Below, piece by piece: positions 12,310 through 24,340 of a stretch of 64,000 nucleotides of DNA. The stretch is from a virus. Taxonomy: Duplodnaviria; Heunggongvirae; Uroviricota; Caudoviricetes. Both the position numbers and the translations under genes were made by a program. The number at the start of each line of letters is the position of its first letter. The first letter of the stretch is position 1. Location of the stretch: IMG/VR virus record IMGVR_UViG_3300036670_000258, positions 97,412 through 161,411 of that record. One strand, written 5' to 3'. Under the pieces are notes generated by a model, which was not told where the DNA came from, made no database searches, and worked only from the letters and a program-made list of their open reading frames with translations.

Positions 12310-12374
12310 ATGTTATCCTAAGATAATATCATCTGATTTGTTTACGAAATCTTCATGTAGTTTAGTGTTTTTCA
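12310..12374 (-). pseudogene. 5' relic of an N-tag family gene (MKNTKLHEDFVNKSDDIILG*)
   Basis: Reverse complement of 12310-12374 reproduces the family start region, then terminates after 20 codons. Confidence 0.4.
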
Positions 12375-13103
12375 TTACTTTAACATTTTTTTGATTAATG
12401 ATGCTCTATCTGCTTCTTTATTATTTTGTAATTCACCAGCTATCTGTATGTATTTCTTTAGATAATTAAGATTCTTTTTATCCAGTTCACCGCTGACATC
12501 GACATAATTCGAATAGGCTGCATAACTAATTGTGAGTCTTAATTGACCTGTTTTAAAATTAACAATTAACAGATTGACGTCTTCATATGATGTATCTGTG
12601 CCGGCTAGTAGTGTTAGTTCATTATTATTATATCTAATGTCTCCTCTATTAAAACTACCTGATTGGGATTGTATTTTGTCTATTAGGGTCTTTGAAATTT
12701 CCTCTATTCCACCTGCATTTTTAATTACATTTTCAAATTCAACCACCTTGTTTGCAGTAGATAACTTTAAAGTGGCAGCGAATTCACGTTGTTCAATGTC
12801 GTCTGTTATCTTTTTTAATTTTATGTATAACTTACCTGTTTTTTTAGAATCGATTTCCAGACGTTTACCTCCCGTATCAGGTCCAATAAAACTACACGTT
12901 GCTTTAAAAATTTTAAATCTATTCTCACCATATTGAAATTCTATTTCGCCTCGGATTATTTCTAGATTTTCTAAAAGTTCTGCATTATTAATAAGAGTCT
13001 GTATTAATCTATCATCATCTGATTTTATTCCAAGTGCGAAATCTTTAATATCACTAACAATTGATTCGTTTATGAAATCTTCATATAGTTTAATATGTTT
13101 CAT
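12375..13103 (-). CDS. N-tag family protein (MKHIKLYEDFINE...)
   Basis: 242 aa. Invariant 13-aa N-terminus shared with at least 9 paralogues. Confidence 0.55.
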   Translation of the reverse strand: MKHIKLYEDFINESIVSDIKDFALGIKSDDDRLIQTLINNAELLENLEIIRGEIEFQYGENRFKIFKATCSFIGPDTGGKRLEIDSKKTGKLYIKLKKITDDIEQREFAATLKLSTANKVVEFENVIKNAGGIEEISKTLIDKIQSQSGSFNRGDIRYNNNELTLLAGTDTSYEDVNLLIVNFKTGQLRLTISYAAYSNYVDVSGELDKKNLNYLKKYIQIAGELQNNKEADRASLIKKMLK

Positions 13104-13114
13104 ACTTATTTATA

Positions 13115-13522
13115 TTAGTTTATTAAAAATTTCATTTTCTTTAATGTTATTACGTCTTGTACTGAACGTCTTTCGAGCATGTCAACTAGTATATCAGTAA
13201 GCTGACTAAGAGCATTACGATTATCTTTAGCATATAATTCATCGTGAGATATCCATGTATAATCAGCGGCAAACTTAATAGCGTCAACTACATTTCCTGC
13301 CCCTGTAAATATTTCAAATAACTCCCAAGCTTTTTCTTCATTGTTTGTCTGGAATTTTTTGTCGTTTACAAAGGAGTCTACTGACCCATTGTTGTCATCG
13401 AAAATACTATTCTTACTTGCATACTTTGAGAGTTTTTGCTCTTCAGATTTGCTGATGTGGCGTTTTTCGTTAAATGGCCAAGATTCATTAACGAATTCTT
13501 CGTATAGTTTTACGTATTTCAT
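13115..13522 (-). CDS. N-tag family protein (true start at second Met MKYVKLYEEFVNE)
   Basis: Track ORF 13115-13582. The internal Met at 13522 reproduces the family N-terminus. Confidence 0.5.
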   Translation of the reverse strand: MKYVKLYEEFVNESWPFNEKRHISKSEEQKLSKYASKNSIFDDNNGSVDSFVNDKKFQTNNEEKAWELFEIFTGAGNVVDAIKFAADYTWISHDELYAKDNRNALSQLTDILVDMLERRSVQDVITLKKMKFLIN

Positions 13523-13695
13523 GTTTAGTTTTTGTTTATTATATTTGTGATTCAATATCCAATATTGTTTTAATTTTAACAATTTATTTTAGGGATGCGG
13601 ATTTTAAGATACGTAGAATTTCATTAAAACTCTCTGTCCTTTAACATGGTTACCTGGTCATTTTTTTGCTTTCCGGATTTCTTTAGACTCAACTG

Positions 13696-14019
13696 CTATA
13701 CAAATTTATATAGATTATCTTGTATATATTTTTTTATTTCTTCTGATGATTTTTTAAGATTGACATCGAATTTGTCTAATGTTTCTACAGCATCCCCATT
13801 ATCAATATACATCATAATTTTGTCACCTGAAATTGATAGTTCAAAGTCTTGTTTAGAACCATTAAATCTTAAACTAGGATATCCTAAGAAGTTCTTTTTT
13901 ATACTTCTTACTGTTAATTTATCAGAGACTGATTTTACAATGTCGGTTAATTCTTTTTGCACTTTAACAGTAAGTGATGCTTCGTTTACGAAATCTTCGT
14001 ATAGTTTAATATGTTTCAT
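13696..14019 (-). CDS. N-tag family protein (MKHIKLYEDFVNE...)
   Basis: 107 aa. Confidence 0.55.
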   Translation of the reverse strand: MKHIKLYEDFVNEASLTVKVQKELTDIVKSVSDKLTVRSIKKNFLGYPSLRFNGSKQDFELSISGDKIMMYIDNGDAVETLDKFDVNLKKSSEEIKKYIQDNLYKFV

Positions 14020-14058
14020 AATGTCTGTGTTTTTATGTTTGGTTTTTATGTTTGGTTT

Positions 14059-14511
14059 TTATATCCGTGATTCAATATCCCATTGAAGTCTTTCAATATA
14101 TTTGTCCATGGTGCGAAGCATTGGATAATCGTTAAATAGTTTTGTTCTCATGCGTGGATCTATTATAAGATTTTGTGCTAAATCATATGCGTTCTCAGTA
14201 CCTCCGTTGTCAGCTACCACGCCTTTAAGTATCTTATTATATTCTGCCTTTGTATATGCCTTTATCCATTCCGGATTTAATGTGGTTTCCTTCTTGGCAG
14301 CTTTTGGTTTAACATCTATTCCAGCGTTTTGAGATACTACCGCCTTTAAACTAAACGATTTAGGGTTTTTTCTTGCATCAACAACATCAACAACATCATC
14401 CTTCACCTTAAGAATTGTATATTTAAGATCATTCATTATAATAGGTTGACTTATCATGAAATCGAGTTTACCTTCGTTTACGAAATCTTCGTATAGTTTA
14501 ATGTGTTTCAT
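14059..14511 (-). CDS. N-tag family protein (MKHIKLYEDFVNE...)
   Basis: 150 aa. Confidence 0.55.
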   Translation of the reverse strand: MKHIKLYEDFVNEGKLDFMISQPIIMNDLKYTILKVKDDVVDVVDARKNPKSFSLKAVVSQNAGIDVKPKAAKKETTLNPEWIKAYTKAEYNKILKGVVADNGGTENAYDLAQNLIIDPRMRTKLFNDYPMLRTMDKYIERLQWDIESRI

Positions 14512-14516
14512 TTCTT

Positions 14517-22611: not shown

Positions 22612-23007
22612 TTATACAATATATTTGCTTAGGAAAAATGTTATTATTGCACCACTAGCTGTCAATATTGCAATTAATATTTTGTTTACTGAATTTTTCC
22701 AGCGAACAAGATCTTCATGTTCTTCTGCTATTTTTTTTCTTTCACTTAATAGAGATTCTTGGGATTCTCTAAATTCAGAGTTTTTCTTGTTTTCAACAAT
22801 TACACCATCATATGGACTTAGTAATTGTTTTTTAATTTCTCTGATTTCCGTCTTCATTTCATTCTGGTTTTCTACCAGTTTTTCTAAGGTATTTTCTATC
22901 TGAACATAATTAGGATCTTCTATTCTTCTTTTAAACGAAGAAAAGAGATCATATAGTTCAATAATCATGTCTTGTGGGCTTCTTTCTGGTATCATTATAA
23001 ATGTCAA
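22612..23007 (-). CDS. coiled-coil protein with C-terminal TM helix
   Basis: 131 aa. ILIAILTASGAIITFFLSKYIV. Confidence 0.45.
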   Translation of the reverse strand: MTFIMIPERSPQDMIIELYDLFSSFKRRIEDPNYVQIENTLEKLVENQNEMKTEIREIKKQLLSPYDGVIVENKKNSEFRESQESLLSERKKIAEEHEDLVRWKNSVNKILIAILTASGAIITFFLSKYIV

Positions 23008-23015
23008 TGGGTCTT

Positions 23016-23063
23016 TTTAGTCTAATGTATATATCAGACTAAAAAGACCCATTAAATGGTATA
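23016..23063. other. long hairpin (18-bp stem, 12-nt loop) without U-tract
   Basis: aatgggtctttttagtct ... agactaaaaagacccatt, between gene 23079-23426 and gene 22612-23007. Confidence 0.5.
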
Positions 23064-23078
23064 CTTATGTAAAATGTA

Positions 23079-23426
23079 TTATTTTTTTGGCATCGCCGTA
23101 AAGTTTCTTGCTCCACGTGGAATTCCTTGATCGAATGGACCTTTAGCCTTTCCTGTCTTTACAAGTTCAATTGCATCTTTAGGTGATTTTGCTAAAACAT
23201 CAAAATCCGTGTCATTGTCGTTAGAATCCCAGAAAGTAACAACGTACATTGATTCTTTGGCTTCGTCAATTCCAGATCCAATCGTAGAAGTACCATAACG
23301 TGCAATCCATTCTTCTCTAGTCATATTAGCCTCTTTTGCTTTCATTCCTAAAAAATCATTATCATGAAATATTTTAGCTGATTTGGAATCACTATTGAAC
23401 TCTTCAAATAATTTTACTTTTTTCAT
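23079..23426 (-). CDS. N-tag family protein (MKKVKLFEEFNSD...)
   Basis: 115 aa. Confidence 0.5.
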   Translation of the reverse strand: MKKVKLFEEFNSDSKSAKIFHDNDFLGMKAKEANMTREEWIARYGTSTIGSGIDEAKESMYVVTFWDSNDNDTDFDVLAKSPKDAIELVKTGKAKGPFDQGIPRGARNFTAMPKK

Positions 23427-23429
23427 AAT

Positions 23430-24056
23430 TTAATAACTTGATTGTATTTCATCATATTGATTTGATTTATCAATAATCGAAGGAATGTAAAAATATTTAG
23501 TTCCTTTTAAATTTGTTTTTCTAATTCTGTAAATGTAATCATCATCATTTCCATTATTTAATAGGTACATTGCTATACCATCGCCCTTTGATATGTCTAT
23601 GTTATTTCCGAATATATCTATTAAGTCATCAACACTATTACTTGCAACCCACCCATCTGCAGTTTTACCTGACAAATATTTTTCTGGATTGTCAGTTTTC
23701 CTTAATGGATACAATTTAGTGGAATCAACTTTACCCTCTACTATAATGTTTTCATTTAGTTTTATTAAAGTACCTTTCATGAAATTTTTGCTCGTTGAAA
23801 CATCTATCTTAGTTCCCTTTGACATTTTAATCATGTCACTGTTCTTTACAATAACAGAACCTATAATCTCTTTTTGTGGATCGTTATCCATTAGATAAAG
23901 GCTATCGGTCTTATCTCCTTCTCTTTCAAAACCTGCAATGTTAATGTTATATTTCTTTGCACCAATAACTAGTTCATATTCTCCTGAAATTTGAGTATCA
24001 TATGCAACATTCTTATATTCAGAAATGAACTCTTCGAATAATTTTACTTTTTTCAT
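23430..24056 (-). CDS. N-tag family protein (MKKVKLFEEFISE...)
   Basis: 208 aa. Confidence 0.55.
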   Translation of the reverse strand: MKKVKLFEEFISEYKNVAYDTQISGEYELVIGAKKYNINIAGFEREGDKTDSLYLMDNDPQKEIIGSVIVKNSDMIKMSKGTKIDVSTSKNFMKGTLIKLNENIIVEGKVDSTKLYPLRKTDNPEKYLSGKTADGWVASNSVDDLIDIFGNNIDISKGDGIAMYLLNNGNDDDYIYRIRKTNLKGTKYFYIPSIIDKSNQYDEIQSSY

Positions 24057-24067
24057 TTATATTTCTT

Positions 24068-24340
24068 TTATGATTTTACGTATTCGGAATAAACTTGCTT
24101 ACCTTCATTATCTTCTATAGATATTGTATAATATGTAAACTTCATATCGCGAATTGATTCATATTTTGCAGGAATAATGTCTCTAACATTTACTAATTCT
24201 TGATGAACTACCTTTTTATCCTTAATAACAACTAATGCCCATGGTCCTGTTTGGCTTCCATCCTTAACACCTTTCATTATTTTACTCCAATTGCCTTTAG
24301 CTTCACTAATGTATTCTTCGTATAATTTAATATGATTCAT
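24068..24340 (-). CDS. N-tag family protein (MNHIKLYEEYISE...)
   Basis: 90 aa. Confidence 0.5.
   Translation of the reverse strand: MNHIKLYEEYISEAKGNWSKIMKGVKDGSQTGPWALVVIKDKKVVHQELVNVRDIIPAKYESIRDMKFTYYTISIEDNEGKQVYSEYVKS

Follow-up and report, generated by a model that had tools for sequence, protein, structure and literature searches.

A 13-residue N-terminal leader resembling the T4 capsid-targeting sequence opens unrelated small proteins in uncultured phages

In phage T4, IPI, IPII and IPIII, which are internal proteins, together with Alt, carry a short N-terminal leader (10-19 aa in proteins of this type), the capsid-targeting sequence (CTS), on otherwise unrelated small proteins. This leader ends in an aliphatic residue, any residue and Glu ahead of a small residue, where the gp21 prohead protease cuts: IPII and IPIII begin MKTYQEFIAE/A (the slash marks a cleavage site throughout) and IPI begins MKTFKEFTSTTTPVSTITE then A. 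CTS residues 4 and 7 are needed for targeting and residues 8 and 10 for processing (PMC9026906). The T4 internal proteins are 76-183 aa long, and their loci vary between related phages. In phiKZ and SPN3US, an S80 prohead protease cuts many of the proteins inside the head behind the Glu of a short motif, and the SPN3US paralogous cargo proteins gp53 and gp54 have identical N-termini (PMC5694885). Individual ejection proteins of these phages have multiple processing sites, propeptides are mostly longer than 100 residues with the motif S/A/G-x-E, and no short universal tag has been described. Encapsulins offer a more distant parallel, since a short terminal peptide suffices to load unrelated enzymes into an HK97-fold shell; that peptide, however, is usually C-terminal, uncleaved and bound directly to the shell, and encapsulin systems lack a portal, a scaffold, a protease and ejection.

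Here we describe a leader of this general kind in an uncultured T4-type phage of the class Caudoviricetes. In the window, the whole 64-kb stretch of DNA that was analysed, the 13-residue sequence MK[HKY][IV]KL[YF]E[DE]F[IV]NE opens nine small minus-strand genes and a 20-codon relic. The nine open reading frames listed in the original prediction are all present and all open with this tag, and a six-frame scan of the 64 kb for K[LIVMF][YF]E[EDQ][FY] finds nine sites only, those of the nine tagged genes, each immediately 3' of a start codon. The bodies that follow are unrelated, as had been proposed: the lowest all-versus-all BLASTP E-value past residue 14 is 0.26. Pfam, PHROG and NCBIfam searches of the nine proteins returned 0 matches. 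The predicted mature bodies range from 8.9 to 25.8 kDa, similar in size to the T4 internal proteins, and are basic in 5/9.

Five of these genes lie close together on the minus strand. The gene at 12375-13103 (242 aa; MKHIKLYEDFINE then S) has a singleton body with a predicted mature mass of 25.8 kDa and pI of 6.4. It is accompanied by genes at 13115-13522 (135 aa; MKYVKLYEEFVNE then S), whose start is sensibly taken as the ATG at 13522, a mechanical ORF list running on to a TTG at 13582; at 13696-14019 (107 aa; MKHIKLYEDFVNE then A); at 14059-14511 (150 aa; MKHIKLYEDFVNE then G); and at 14517-14996 (159 aa; MKHIKLYEDFINE then K). The sixth gene, at 15579-16172 (197 aa, minus strand; MKKVKLFEEFINE then K), has a body, perhaps enzymatic, whose widespread family (335 clusters) conserves the motifs GGH, GVGHDG and EVSGK. 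Across its orthologues (n=25), Glu13 is invariant and the aromatic spacing is kept while the remainder of the tag drifts; in an AF2 model, residues 1-29 have pLDDT <50 and the tag is not folded into the body.

Three further minus-strand genes lie at 23079-23426 (115 aa; MKKVKLFEEFNSD), 23430-24056 (208 aa; MKKVKLFEEFISE then Y) and 24068-24340 (90 aa; MNHIKLYEEYISE then A). In the first, the cleavage-site part is degenerate, with NSD in place of [IV]NE and the Glu site absent; orthologues in relatives read FIDE/S or FIGE/G. In T4, Asp at P1 stops processing and leaves targeting unaffected (PMC9026906). The AF2 model of the 24068-24340 protein (pLDDT 79.7) places a helix at residues 7-27 ahead of a beta-beta-alpha-beta-beta core.

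The relic had also been predicted; it exists, although at 12313-12375 on the minus strand and not at 12310-12374. Read directly from the sequence, it encodes 20 aa, MKNTKLHEDFVNKSDDIILG up to its stop codon, with three decayed tag positions (I4T, Y7H and E13K), and its ATG shares bases with the TAA that ends the upstream gene. It forms the 3' end of the array, adjoins a non-coding island and also occurs in a 98%-identical contig. In a comparison with the window, it was not found in the close relative L035, where a variable cassette block at 12306-14952, holding the five tagged genes and the relic, is replaced by ~450 nt with one different tagged gene (from a blastn comparison of L035 with the window and from alignments of the junctions). 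The flanks of this block are 87-94% identical to the window, and homology stops ~10-25 nt 3' of the tag of 14517-14996, making that tag a recombination junction. The suggestion that cassettes vary here and recombine at the tag is thus borne out.

Tags of this kind are common in low-GC IMG/VR contigs. A profile search of 1.84 billion proteins gave 150 matches, which start at residue 1 in 141/150. The bodies fall into 90 unrelated clusters for 129 proteins from this search and into 75 clusters for 158 proteins from IMG/VR loci, so that no fewer than 75-90 unrelated body families carry the tag. Among 185,579 cellular genomes there were 9 loose DNA-pattern matches only; the tag is virus-specific. 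The window has nine tagged genes in its 64 kb and relatives reach as many as 11 in 14 kb; because some genomes hold at least 12 tagged genes, not all of the products may be packaged in quantity. No close relative of the window was found among GenBank phages. Tenacibaculum phage PTm1, among the cultured relatives by capsid protein, has no tags in its head module, so the tag is not shared by that capsid lineage as a whole.

The last seven tag residues, YEDFVNE, align without gaps to T4 YQEFIAE, with the same aromatic spacing, Y-x-x-F-[IV]-x-E, and the near-invariant tag positions correspond to CTS residues 4, 7, 8 and 10 at the same spacing. Among 143 tags, [FY]7 occurs in 143/143, F10 in 139/143, [IV]11 in 130/143, N12 in 128/143 and E13 in 141/143; the residue at P1' is A in 68 (48%), S in 34 (24%), K in 15 and G in 13. 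Relatives also carry the variant tags MKTFKEFMIDE/A and MATFKEFLNE/R. The similarity is one of motif only, as 7-13 residues cannot prove homology. Unlike in T4, the leader is 13 aa, three residues longer, and carries an additional H-I-K-L-type stretch behind MK; its MKHIKL part has no counterpart in the CTS, and P2 is nearly always Asn. The arrays are also far larger than the T4 set, with at least 90 body families that include enzyme-like bodies and multi-module polyproteins with internal linkers, and the host is probably not enterobacterial.

T4-type portal, S77 protease and gp23 capsid genes are absent from the 64-kb window itself, and were seen on a ~98%-identical genome, the 170-kb IMG/VR contig 3300037295_000360, one locus of which (L007) is 97.9% identical to window positions 10085-21338. 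A search for portal, protease and capsid families in another part of this contig (L278) found PF07230, PF03420 and PF07068: a Portal_T4 protein (E=8.5e-67), a gp21-family prohead protease (Peptidase_S77, E=4e-12) fused to scaffold-like repeats, with T4 gp21 His85 and Ser140 aligned, and a gp23-type capsid protein (Gp23, E=5e-42). The capsid protein begins MANLINE/SEIRATW, with the same [IV]-N-E site as the tag, and 119 distinct sequences of related capsid genes, each spanning the upstream region and the start, preserve x-I-N-E-[AST]-E. The protease-scaffold contains RVNE/S, FVNE/G and many [LI]-A-E repeats. T4 and the near-identical contig have in common a portal, an S77 protease, a scaffold and a gp23 capsid protein with the same site. 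Further, a 118-aa gene beginning MKTIKTFEQFINSSYIKIDE then A lies between portal and protease, in the place of T4 gp67/gp68, and in the relative L025 the protease-scaffold gene is followed by three tag or tag-variant genes and then the capsid gene. The 13-aa leader, the [IV]-N-E motif and the protease scores (S77 46.3 bits versus S80 25.5 bits) do not match substrates of the phiKZ/SPN3US S80 type.

Long tagged proteins resemble polyproteins whose modules are joined through E-S-x-V-N-E linkers, recalling the multiple processing sites of phiKZ and SPN3US ejection proteins. In the bodies of tag proteins the pattern Exx[IV][NT]E was counted 27 times, whereas shuffles gave 2.0±1.5; 22/27 lie in proteins of at least 250 aa. 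The body of 24068-24340 recurs within tagged polyprotein-like proteins of 217-457 aa, where it is either the first module or an internal one, and in one of them (P0287) is flanked by …EIDE/ATTSW and …NESIINE/G, and the N-terminal part of the 23430-24056 body is found internally in another tagged protein (P0221). As judged from sequence motifs, some tagged bodies resemble metabolic enzymes (NMNAT-like, GRFQPMHLGH; P-loop kinase, GGPGSGKS; ligase-like, KxDG), and one has a weak R2K ATP-grasp Pfam match; such bodies need not be virion cargo.

The original prediction had likened the leader to those of T4 internal proteins, with an [IV]-x-E site before swappable bodies. This analogy is strengthened by a near-identical genome with T4-type head genes, the same site on the capsid protein and protease-scaffold, the fit to experimentally important CTS residues, the tag-type genes within head modules and the linkers that delimit modules of long tagged proteins. 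By this analogy, we consider it likely (probability roughly 0.7) that the tag is a CTS-type N-terminal propeptide, cut by the prohead protease, that marks swappable, ejected internal proteins. An aromatic/aliphatic face formed by [FY]7, F10 and [IV]11 would let the new protein dock on the scaffolding core as the prohead assembles; the gp21-family (S77) protease would then cut after Glu13, between [IV]-N-E and A, S, G or K, as it would cut the capsid protein (…L-I-N-E/S-E) and scaffold, and would also cut at the E-S-x-[IV]-[NT]-E linkers inside long tagged polyproteins, splitting these into modules. The freed bodies would remain in the head and be ejected along with the DNA, where their functions may include anti-defence roles. 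Since the first 39 nt are the same in every cassette, bodies could be exchanged among related phages through homologous recombination at the tag, which would generate the hypervariable arrays.

It is also conceivable that tag and linkers are protease-processing signals only, in precursors cut by the S77 or another protease with no capsid targeting or carriage. The internal E-S-x-V-N-E linkers do lie at module boundaries without the MKHIKL[FY] half, and some of the enzyme bodies could act in the cytoplasm. We regard this as unlikely, because S77 proteases, judging from T4, act within the assembled prohead (PMC5694885, PMC9026906), the most conserved tag positions include two aromatics that in T4 serve targeting and not cleavage, and a mere cleavage signal needs no 13-residue leader fixed at residue 1. 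The tag might instead be a docking peptide for a partner outside the head, such as a phage chaperone, an assembly hub, a membrane or compartment, or a host factor: it is an acidic amphipathic segment, modelled as helical in one body and disordered in another, and the arrays in the window adjoin tail-fibre genes and not head genes. This explanation is distinctly improbable given the same [IV]-N-E site at the capsid N-terminus and in the protease-scaffold and the tag-type genes within head modules of relatives; moreover, the surroundings of the arrays showed no other conserved partner gene. A secretion signal, which had been raised as an alternative, does not fit, since the tag has no hydrophobic core and so is no Sec, Tat or lipoprotein signal, in which a positively charged n-region leads into a hydrophobic h-region of ~10 or more residues (MKHIKLYEDFVNE has four acidic and three basic residues, His counted, no hydrophobic stretch and a calculated pI of 5.6).

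That the element acts mainly as nucleic acid, its peptide being incidental, is very improbable, whether as an initiation enhancer or operator for a host that does not use Shine-Dalgarno sites or as a recombination site. Several observations do favor it: at ≤3 mismatches, the 39-nt DNA tag matches four times versus 0 in 100 shuffles, and five window tags fall within that limit; window tags use the same codon at 162/218 pair-sites against 128.5 expected, with rare codons favored (CTA and the C-ending TAC, TTC, AAC and CAC); leaders are A-rich and a Shine-Dalgarno site is absent; and homology with L035 breaks at the tag. However, the proposed nucleotide-level conservation holds only among the MKHIKLYEDF copies, which are near-identical; across phages, two to eight synonymous codons occur per tag position with the amino acid kept. 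A peptide that stays constant while synonymous codons vary does not support a function of the RNA or DNA as the main constraint, and suggests that selection on the tag acts at the peptide level. Consistent with this, in orthologues nucleotides and most residues drift and Glu13 and the aromatic spacing stay, and the peptide motif recurs inside polyproteins, where there is no initiation. Any conserved 39-nt stretch invites recombination, so that a dedicated function is unneeded.

A bolder extension, which we find doubtful though possible, is that the tag serves a large uncultured T4-type clade as an all-purpose "address label" by which almost any protein is loaded into the capsid for injection, including NMNAT-like, P-loop kinase, ATP-grasp and ligase-like enzymes as well as polyproteins cut in the prohead. 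The 39-nt tag would then double as a cassette junction, and the arrays would constitute a self-shuffling, integron-like first-strike arsenal with many counter-defence proteins in it. The leader offers a simple means of listing probable head-packed, injected proteins in uncultured phages.

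Nine minus-strand ORFs of the window (GC 31.4%) start with a shared 13-residue leader, or tag, MK[HKY][IV]KL[YF]E[DE]F[IV]NE, or a close variant: 12375-13103, 13115-13522, 13696-14019, 14059-14511, 14517-14996, 15579-16172 (a 197-aa protein), 23079-23426 (whose tag ends in N-S-D), 23430-24056 and 24068-24340 (a 90-aa protein). A six-frame scan of the window found the core K[LIVMF][YF]E[EDQ][FY] at only these sites, each directly behind a start codon, confirming the nine genes of the original prediction; the 39-nt tag DNA has four matches at ≤3 mismatches in the window and none in 100 shuffles. 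The relic tag proposed at 12310-12374 also exists, although at 12313-12375 (minus strand), where it reads MKNTKLHEDFVNKSDDIILG* from an ATG that overlaps the upstream gene's stop. The claim that the bodies, meaning everything after the tag, diverge completely holds as well: past residue 14 they share no common sequence (best pairwise BLASTP E-value, 0.26). Upstream regions of the tagged genes are not conserved, so that similarity begins at the ATG. The proposed family search of the nine bodies, run against Pfam, PHROG and NCBIfam, gave nothing above threshold.

A degenerate tag DNA pattern located 77 loci in IMG/VR contigs of 4-256 kb (GC 29-39%). Together these contain 222 ORFs with the tag, the largest array having 11 genes, and the 158 unique bodies fall into 75 clusters without detectable mutual similarity. 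A profile built from the nine window tags yielded 164 matches among 1.84 billion cluster representatives (E≤0.001), and 141 of the 150 that were listed begin at residue 1. Among the matches listed, the tag logo is M-K-H-I-K-L-[FY]-E-[EDQ]-F-[IV]-N-E, the next residue being A (48%), S (24%), K or G, and 129 bodies of at least 60 aa form 90 unrelated clusters. A tag-only profile in a word-index search for protein homologues returned candidates of only 40-70 aa. In ORFs lacking the canonical tag, the first ten residues show 12-30 times the density of [FYW][IVL][NT]E seen in typical 10-residue bins further along, so the canonical count underestimates how many genes are tagged. Among 185,579 species of bacteria and archaea, each represented by a single genome, a looser tag pattern occurs in just nine places, two of them N-terminal; both of these lie on archaeal MAG contigs (one with 28% GC) that may be mis-binned viral DNA.

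GenBank phages hold no close copy of the tag system by megablast, tblastn or blastn. The locus gave no megablast match; tblastn of the concatenated bodies matched only the 197-aa body, in uncultured 635-735-kb phages; and blastn of the tag DNA matched only an uncultured 642-kb phage (E=0.02), a gene-internal match in a Cronobacter phage being dismissed as chance. In the literature library searched, no paper contains the tag motif strings, and the tag appears not to have been described. Homologues of the 197-aa body are present in the published huge phages L087 (LR745206, 635 kb) and L088 (LR756501, 735 kb), one of them beginning with a degenerate tag, MKHLKAFEEYEFPKNKW…, which suggests that the system extends into the largest known phage genomes.

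Head genes are absent from the 64-kb window; encoded there are functions for replication and nucleotide metabolism, lysis-type enzymes, a cluster of tRNAs and a tail fibre that is collagen-like and bears a Peptidase_S74 chaperone domain. Using a capsid-protein search, we found the head module at L278, a locus of the 170-kb IMG/VR contig 3300037295_000360, whose locus L007 is 97.9% identical to window 10085-21338. The products of this module are a portal of T4 type (PF07230, E=8.5e-67), a protein of 118 aa, encoded at 7512-7868 of L278, that starts MKTIKTFEQFINSSYIKIDE|AAID (the bar marks a predicted cut), a 638-aa protease-scaffold fusion encoded at 7938-9854 (PF03420 Peptidase_S77, E=4e-12) and a capsid protein of the gp23 family (PF07068, E=5e-42). 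The protease is 31% identical to T4 gp21, the prohead protease, with His85 and Ser140 matched; weak gp21 matches in two other loci, L065 and L068, were rejected as prohead proteases, the protein having only 132 aa. When contig names were compared by hand, at least 14 tag-bearing contigs were also among the capsid-gene contigs listed.

The capsid protein has relatives in uncultured 460-735-kb phages, Lak phages of Prevotella, Tenacibaculum, Flavobacterium and Chryseobacterium phages and Sphingomonas phage PAU; taken with leaders devoid of Shine-Dalgarno sites, they make a Bacteroidota host likely. Tenacibaculum phage PTm1 has no tags in its head module and a different capsid N-terminus, and so is unusable as a proteomic proxy. 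The window's tail-fibre gene (19776-22097, minus strand) encodes some 400 residues of collagen-like G-x-y sequence, matched by PF01391 in seven stretches, ahead of the C-terminal Peptidase_S74 domain, and this repeat region is where the window differs most from the 98%-identical contig (94.8% identity, many out-of-register alignments).

The capsid protein of the near-identical contig begins MANLINE|SEIRATW, and related capsid genes retain x-I-N-E-[AST]-E across 119 distinct upstream-plus-start sequences; T4 gp23 is cleaved at …LTE|AEI. The protease-scaffold carries RVNE|S and FVNE|G just past its protease domain, along with many [LI]-A-E repeats, as expected for a scaffold that gets chopped up. 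Three genes with tags or tag variants (MKHVKTFDKFIAE|G, MIKSFDAFKLNE|G and MKHIKLFEDFVNE|A) lie between the protease-scaffold and capsid genes of locus L025, and tag-type genes flank the same head module in L178, L179 and L193.

The T4 internal proteins IPII and IPIII share the start MKTYQEFIAE|A, and that of IPI is MKTFKEFTSTTTPVSTITE|A. In the capsid-targeting sequence (CTS) of IPIII, targeting depends mainly on residues 4 and 7 (Tyr and Phe) and processing mainly on residues 8 and 10 (Ile and Glu); Asp at position 10 blocks processing and leaves targeting intact, and gp21 cleaves Glu-Ala bonds (PMC9026906). The T4 stretch Y-Q-E-F-I-A-E aligns without gaps with the last seven residues of the tag, [YF]-E-[EDQ]-F-[IV]-N-E, and its four functionally defined positions are the four most conserved positions of the tag, one form of which, with its predicted cut, reads MKHIKLYEDFVNE|A. 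Shorter variants in relatives (MKTFKEFMIDE|A, MATFKEFLNE|R and MKTFNDFINE|S) bridge the T4 form and the 13-residue form. The T4 internal proteins have 76-183 aa and pI 9.0-9.7, compared with 8.9-25.8 kDa and pI 5.2-9.2 for the predicted mature bodies of the window (above 8.5 in five of nine). By T4 precedent, the product of 23079-23426, with its N-S-D ending, might be targeted yet unprocessed.

Similar starts occur elsewhere. A 64-aa ORF in L068 (9477-9671) and L065 (9596-9790) starts MKTFKEF[MT]IDE|AK, with its first seven residues identical to T4 IPI, and shares homology with a portion of the PAP2-family protein encoded at window 25339-26160; that protein has a start of its own, MDIFKKYNAF. 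The window's ATP-dependent DNA ligase (36084-37388, minus strand) starts MNNFTDLQSIQNFVNE|SNK, and a 53% identical homologue in locus L029 starts MEKTLNLLNDFILE|SNE; such a start may represent a variant tag carried by a replication enzyme, or it may just belong to the fold of the ligase.

In tagged proteins of 250-980 aa, the long ones, a stereotyped linker, E-[SA]-x-[IV]-[NT]-E-[AES], recurs internally; the tag-protein bodies contain 27 such linkers, versus 2.0±1.5 in shuffles (maximum 8 in 200). Proteins of at least 250 aa account for 22 of the 27, and many short-tag proteins of 700-980 aa have two to five apiece. The linkers sit at module boundaries: the body of gene 24068-24340 directly follows a full tag in single-module proteins and lies between …EIDE|ATTSW and …NESIINE|G in the tagged protein P0287, and modules of genes 23079-23426 and 23430-24056 recur in other tagged proteins at different positions. 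Fusions with a complete internal tag are found in P0139 and P0155, and a UPF0227 esterase is fused to a tag gene in P0165 and in the relative L035. In the window, the UPF0227-type alpha/beta hydrolase gene (15029-15505, minus strand) lies between tagged genes; its in-frame fusion with the downstream tagged gene in L035 and P0165, which creates the complete internal tag, may be an intermediate towards polyproteins.

L035 also bears on the proposal that bodies are swapped at this locus. Its flanks are 87-94% identical to the window (aligned stretches 10191-12305 and 14953-17846), and in place of the 2.6 kb that separate them in the window, where five tagged genes and the relic lie, it has ~450 nt holding one different tagged gene. 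At the right junction, homology spans the upstream region and tag of gene 14517-14996 and ends ~10-25 nt beyond the tag, as recombination at the tag predicts; at the left it restarts at a terminator-like hairpin near 12268-12291. The second locus has three tagged genes in the window and about seven in a syntenic 236-kb contig, only two being orthologous. Tagged-gene content thus varies at both loci, contrary to the constancy that would have counted against the original prediction.

A gene-free island of ~900 nt (11400-12310), richer in C than its surroundings, separates the tag array from the gene for a DnaB-like helicase, with about eight tandem copies of TCCCTAAATA (roughly 11690-11770) and repeated 'tcaatgttcaaagtccc' on the flanks. 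Its conservation in L035 (87% identity) makes it probably functional, perhaps as an origin, regulatory region or non-coding RNA. A dispersed repeat of ~80-105 nt (5040-5146, 6200-6306, 7929-8028, 9990-10080 and 10203-10281; copies 90-98% identical) lies between small genes of both strands, also in L007 and L035. Interleaved with it is a second paralogue family of at least seven copies, at 5325-5806 (minus), 8371-9059, 9421-9672 and 9833-10009 (all plus) and 54438-54743 (minus), encoding proteins of 58-101 aa that start MKLGK and continue with repeated DSV/NSV motifs (…SVxDSVxDSVW…).

The 197-aa body family looks enzyme-like; its AF2 model is of low confidence (pLDDT 59.8), and Foldseek with this model gave only non-significant, GNAT-like matches. 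The 90-aa protein gave a fair, usable model whose best PDB match, the anti-CRISPR AcrIF9, is non-significant (E=0.043, TM 0.44), and we treat this likeness as a lead only.

Could the conserved element be the nucleic acid and not the peptide? The original prediction had raised this from the nucleotide conservation of the tag, which does hold among the window's MKHIKLYEDF copies: their DNA likeness exceeds what codon usage predicts (same-codon use 162 versus 128.5 expected), and all carry the minor Leu codon CTA, a pattern that fits common descent or gene conversion. Across phages it does not hold, several synonymous codons being used at every tag position with the amino acid unchanged. Moreover, 25 orthologues of the 197-aa body have drifting leaders (for example MKKVKLFEEFINE, MRNLRTYEEFLNE, MTTFKKYEEYVNE and MLKYEEWLAE) that retain Glu13 together with the spacing aromatic-x-x-aromatic-aliphatic-x-Glu. 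It is thus mainly the peptide that is constrained; with peptide copies also inside proteins, and recombination at the tag better seen as a consequence of 39 conserved nucleotides, a nucleic-acid function is very improbable. A search for a late-promoter motif shared upstream of capsid and tag genes showed nothing clear apart from leaders that are A-rich and lack Shine-Dalgarno sites. Of the codons that the tag favours, TAC, TTC, AAC, GTA, ATT and TTA, though not CTA, are cognate to tRNAs of a cluster of 11-12 genes at 61251-63932 (Arg x3, Leu-TAA, Ile-GAT, Asn-GTT, Phe-GAA, Tyr-GTA, Val-TAC, Ser and Met), which encloses a permuted tmRNA family match (61392-61542; 54.8 bits, gathering score 47).

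The tag lacks a hydrophobic core, which excludes the secretion signal once offered as an alternative. A pure processing signal, without packaging, would leave the conservation of the two 'targeting' aromatics and the strict residue-1 position unexplained, and we consider it unlikely. Docking to some other partner is slightly less probable still, being disfavoured by the site common to capsid protein and scaffold and by the location of tag genes in head modules. The head genes on the 97.9% identical contig, that shared site and the CTS-like positions instead support the capsid-targeting reading first proposed, and we put the probability that the tag is a T4-type capsid-targeting propeptide at roughly 0.7. 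By analogy with the T4 paradigm, binding of the leader to the scaffolding core would be followed by cleavage by the S77 protease, after Glu13 and also at internal linkers, and the bodies would stay in the head and be ejected along with the DNA (PMC3012670, PMC5694885, PMC9026906).

In T-even phages one CTS is common to diverse internal proteins, an arrangement proposed to give T4-like phages a means of loading a variety of proteins (PMC3012670, PMC9026906). Several features here appear to be new: the 13-residue tag itself; the size of the system, with at least 90 body families and arrays of 9-11 genes; its presence in a T4-type lineage that is distant and uncultured and whose hosts are probably Bacteroidota; polyproteins with linkers inside them; the predicted enzyme-like cargo; and a mapped cassette swap at the tag.

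If the tag works like the T4 CTS, a simple pattern at the N-terminus is enough to list the proteins probably injected by a large, uncultured phage clade whose hosts are probably Bacteroidota; the list already spans at least 90 families that are unrelated to one another and all lack annotation. To our knowledge, injected proteins outside a few model phages could be found by virion proteomics only. Proteins injected with phage DNA act ahead of any phage gene expression, which makes them prime counter-defence candidates; T4 IPI*, for instance, blocks a type IV restriction enzyme. The CTS principle would then reach far beyond T-even phages, with the tagged proteins as a case of polyprotein-like cargo with predicted protease sites at its borders and a concrete example of cassette exchange with a breakpoint at the tag, and the tag could serve as a packaging handle in engineering such phages.
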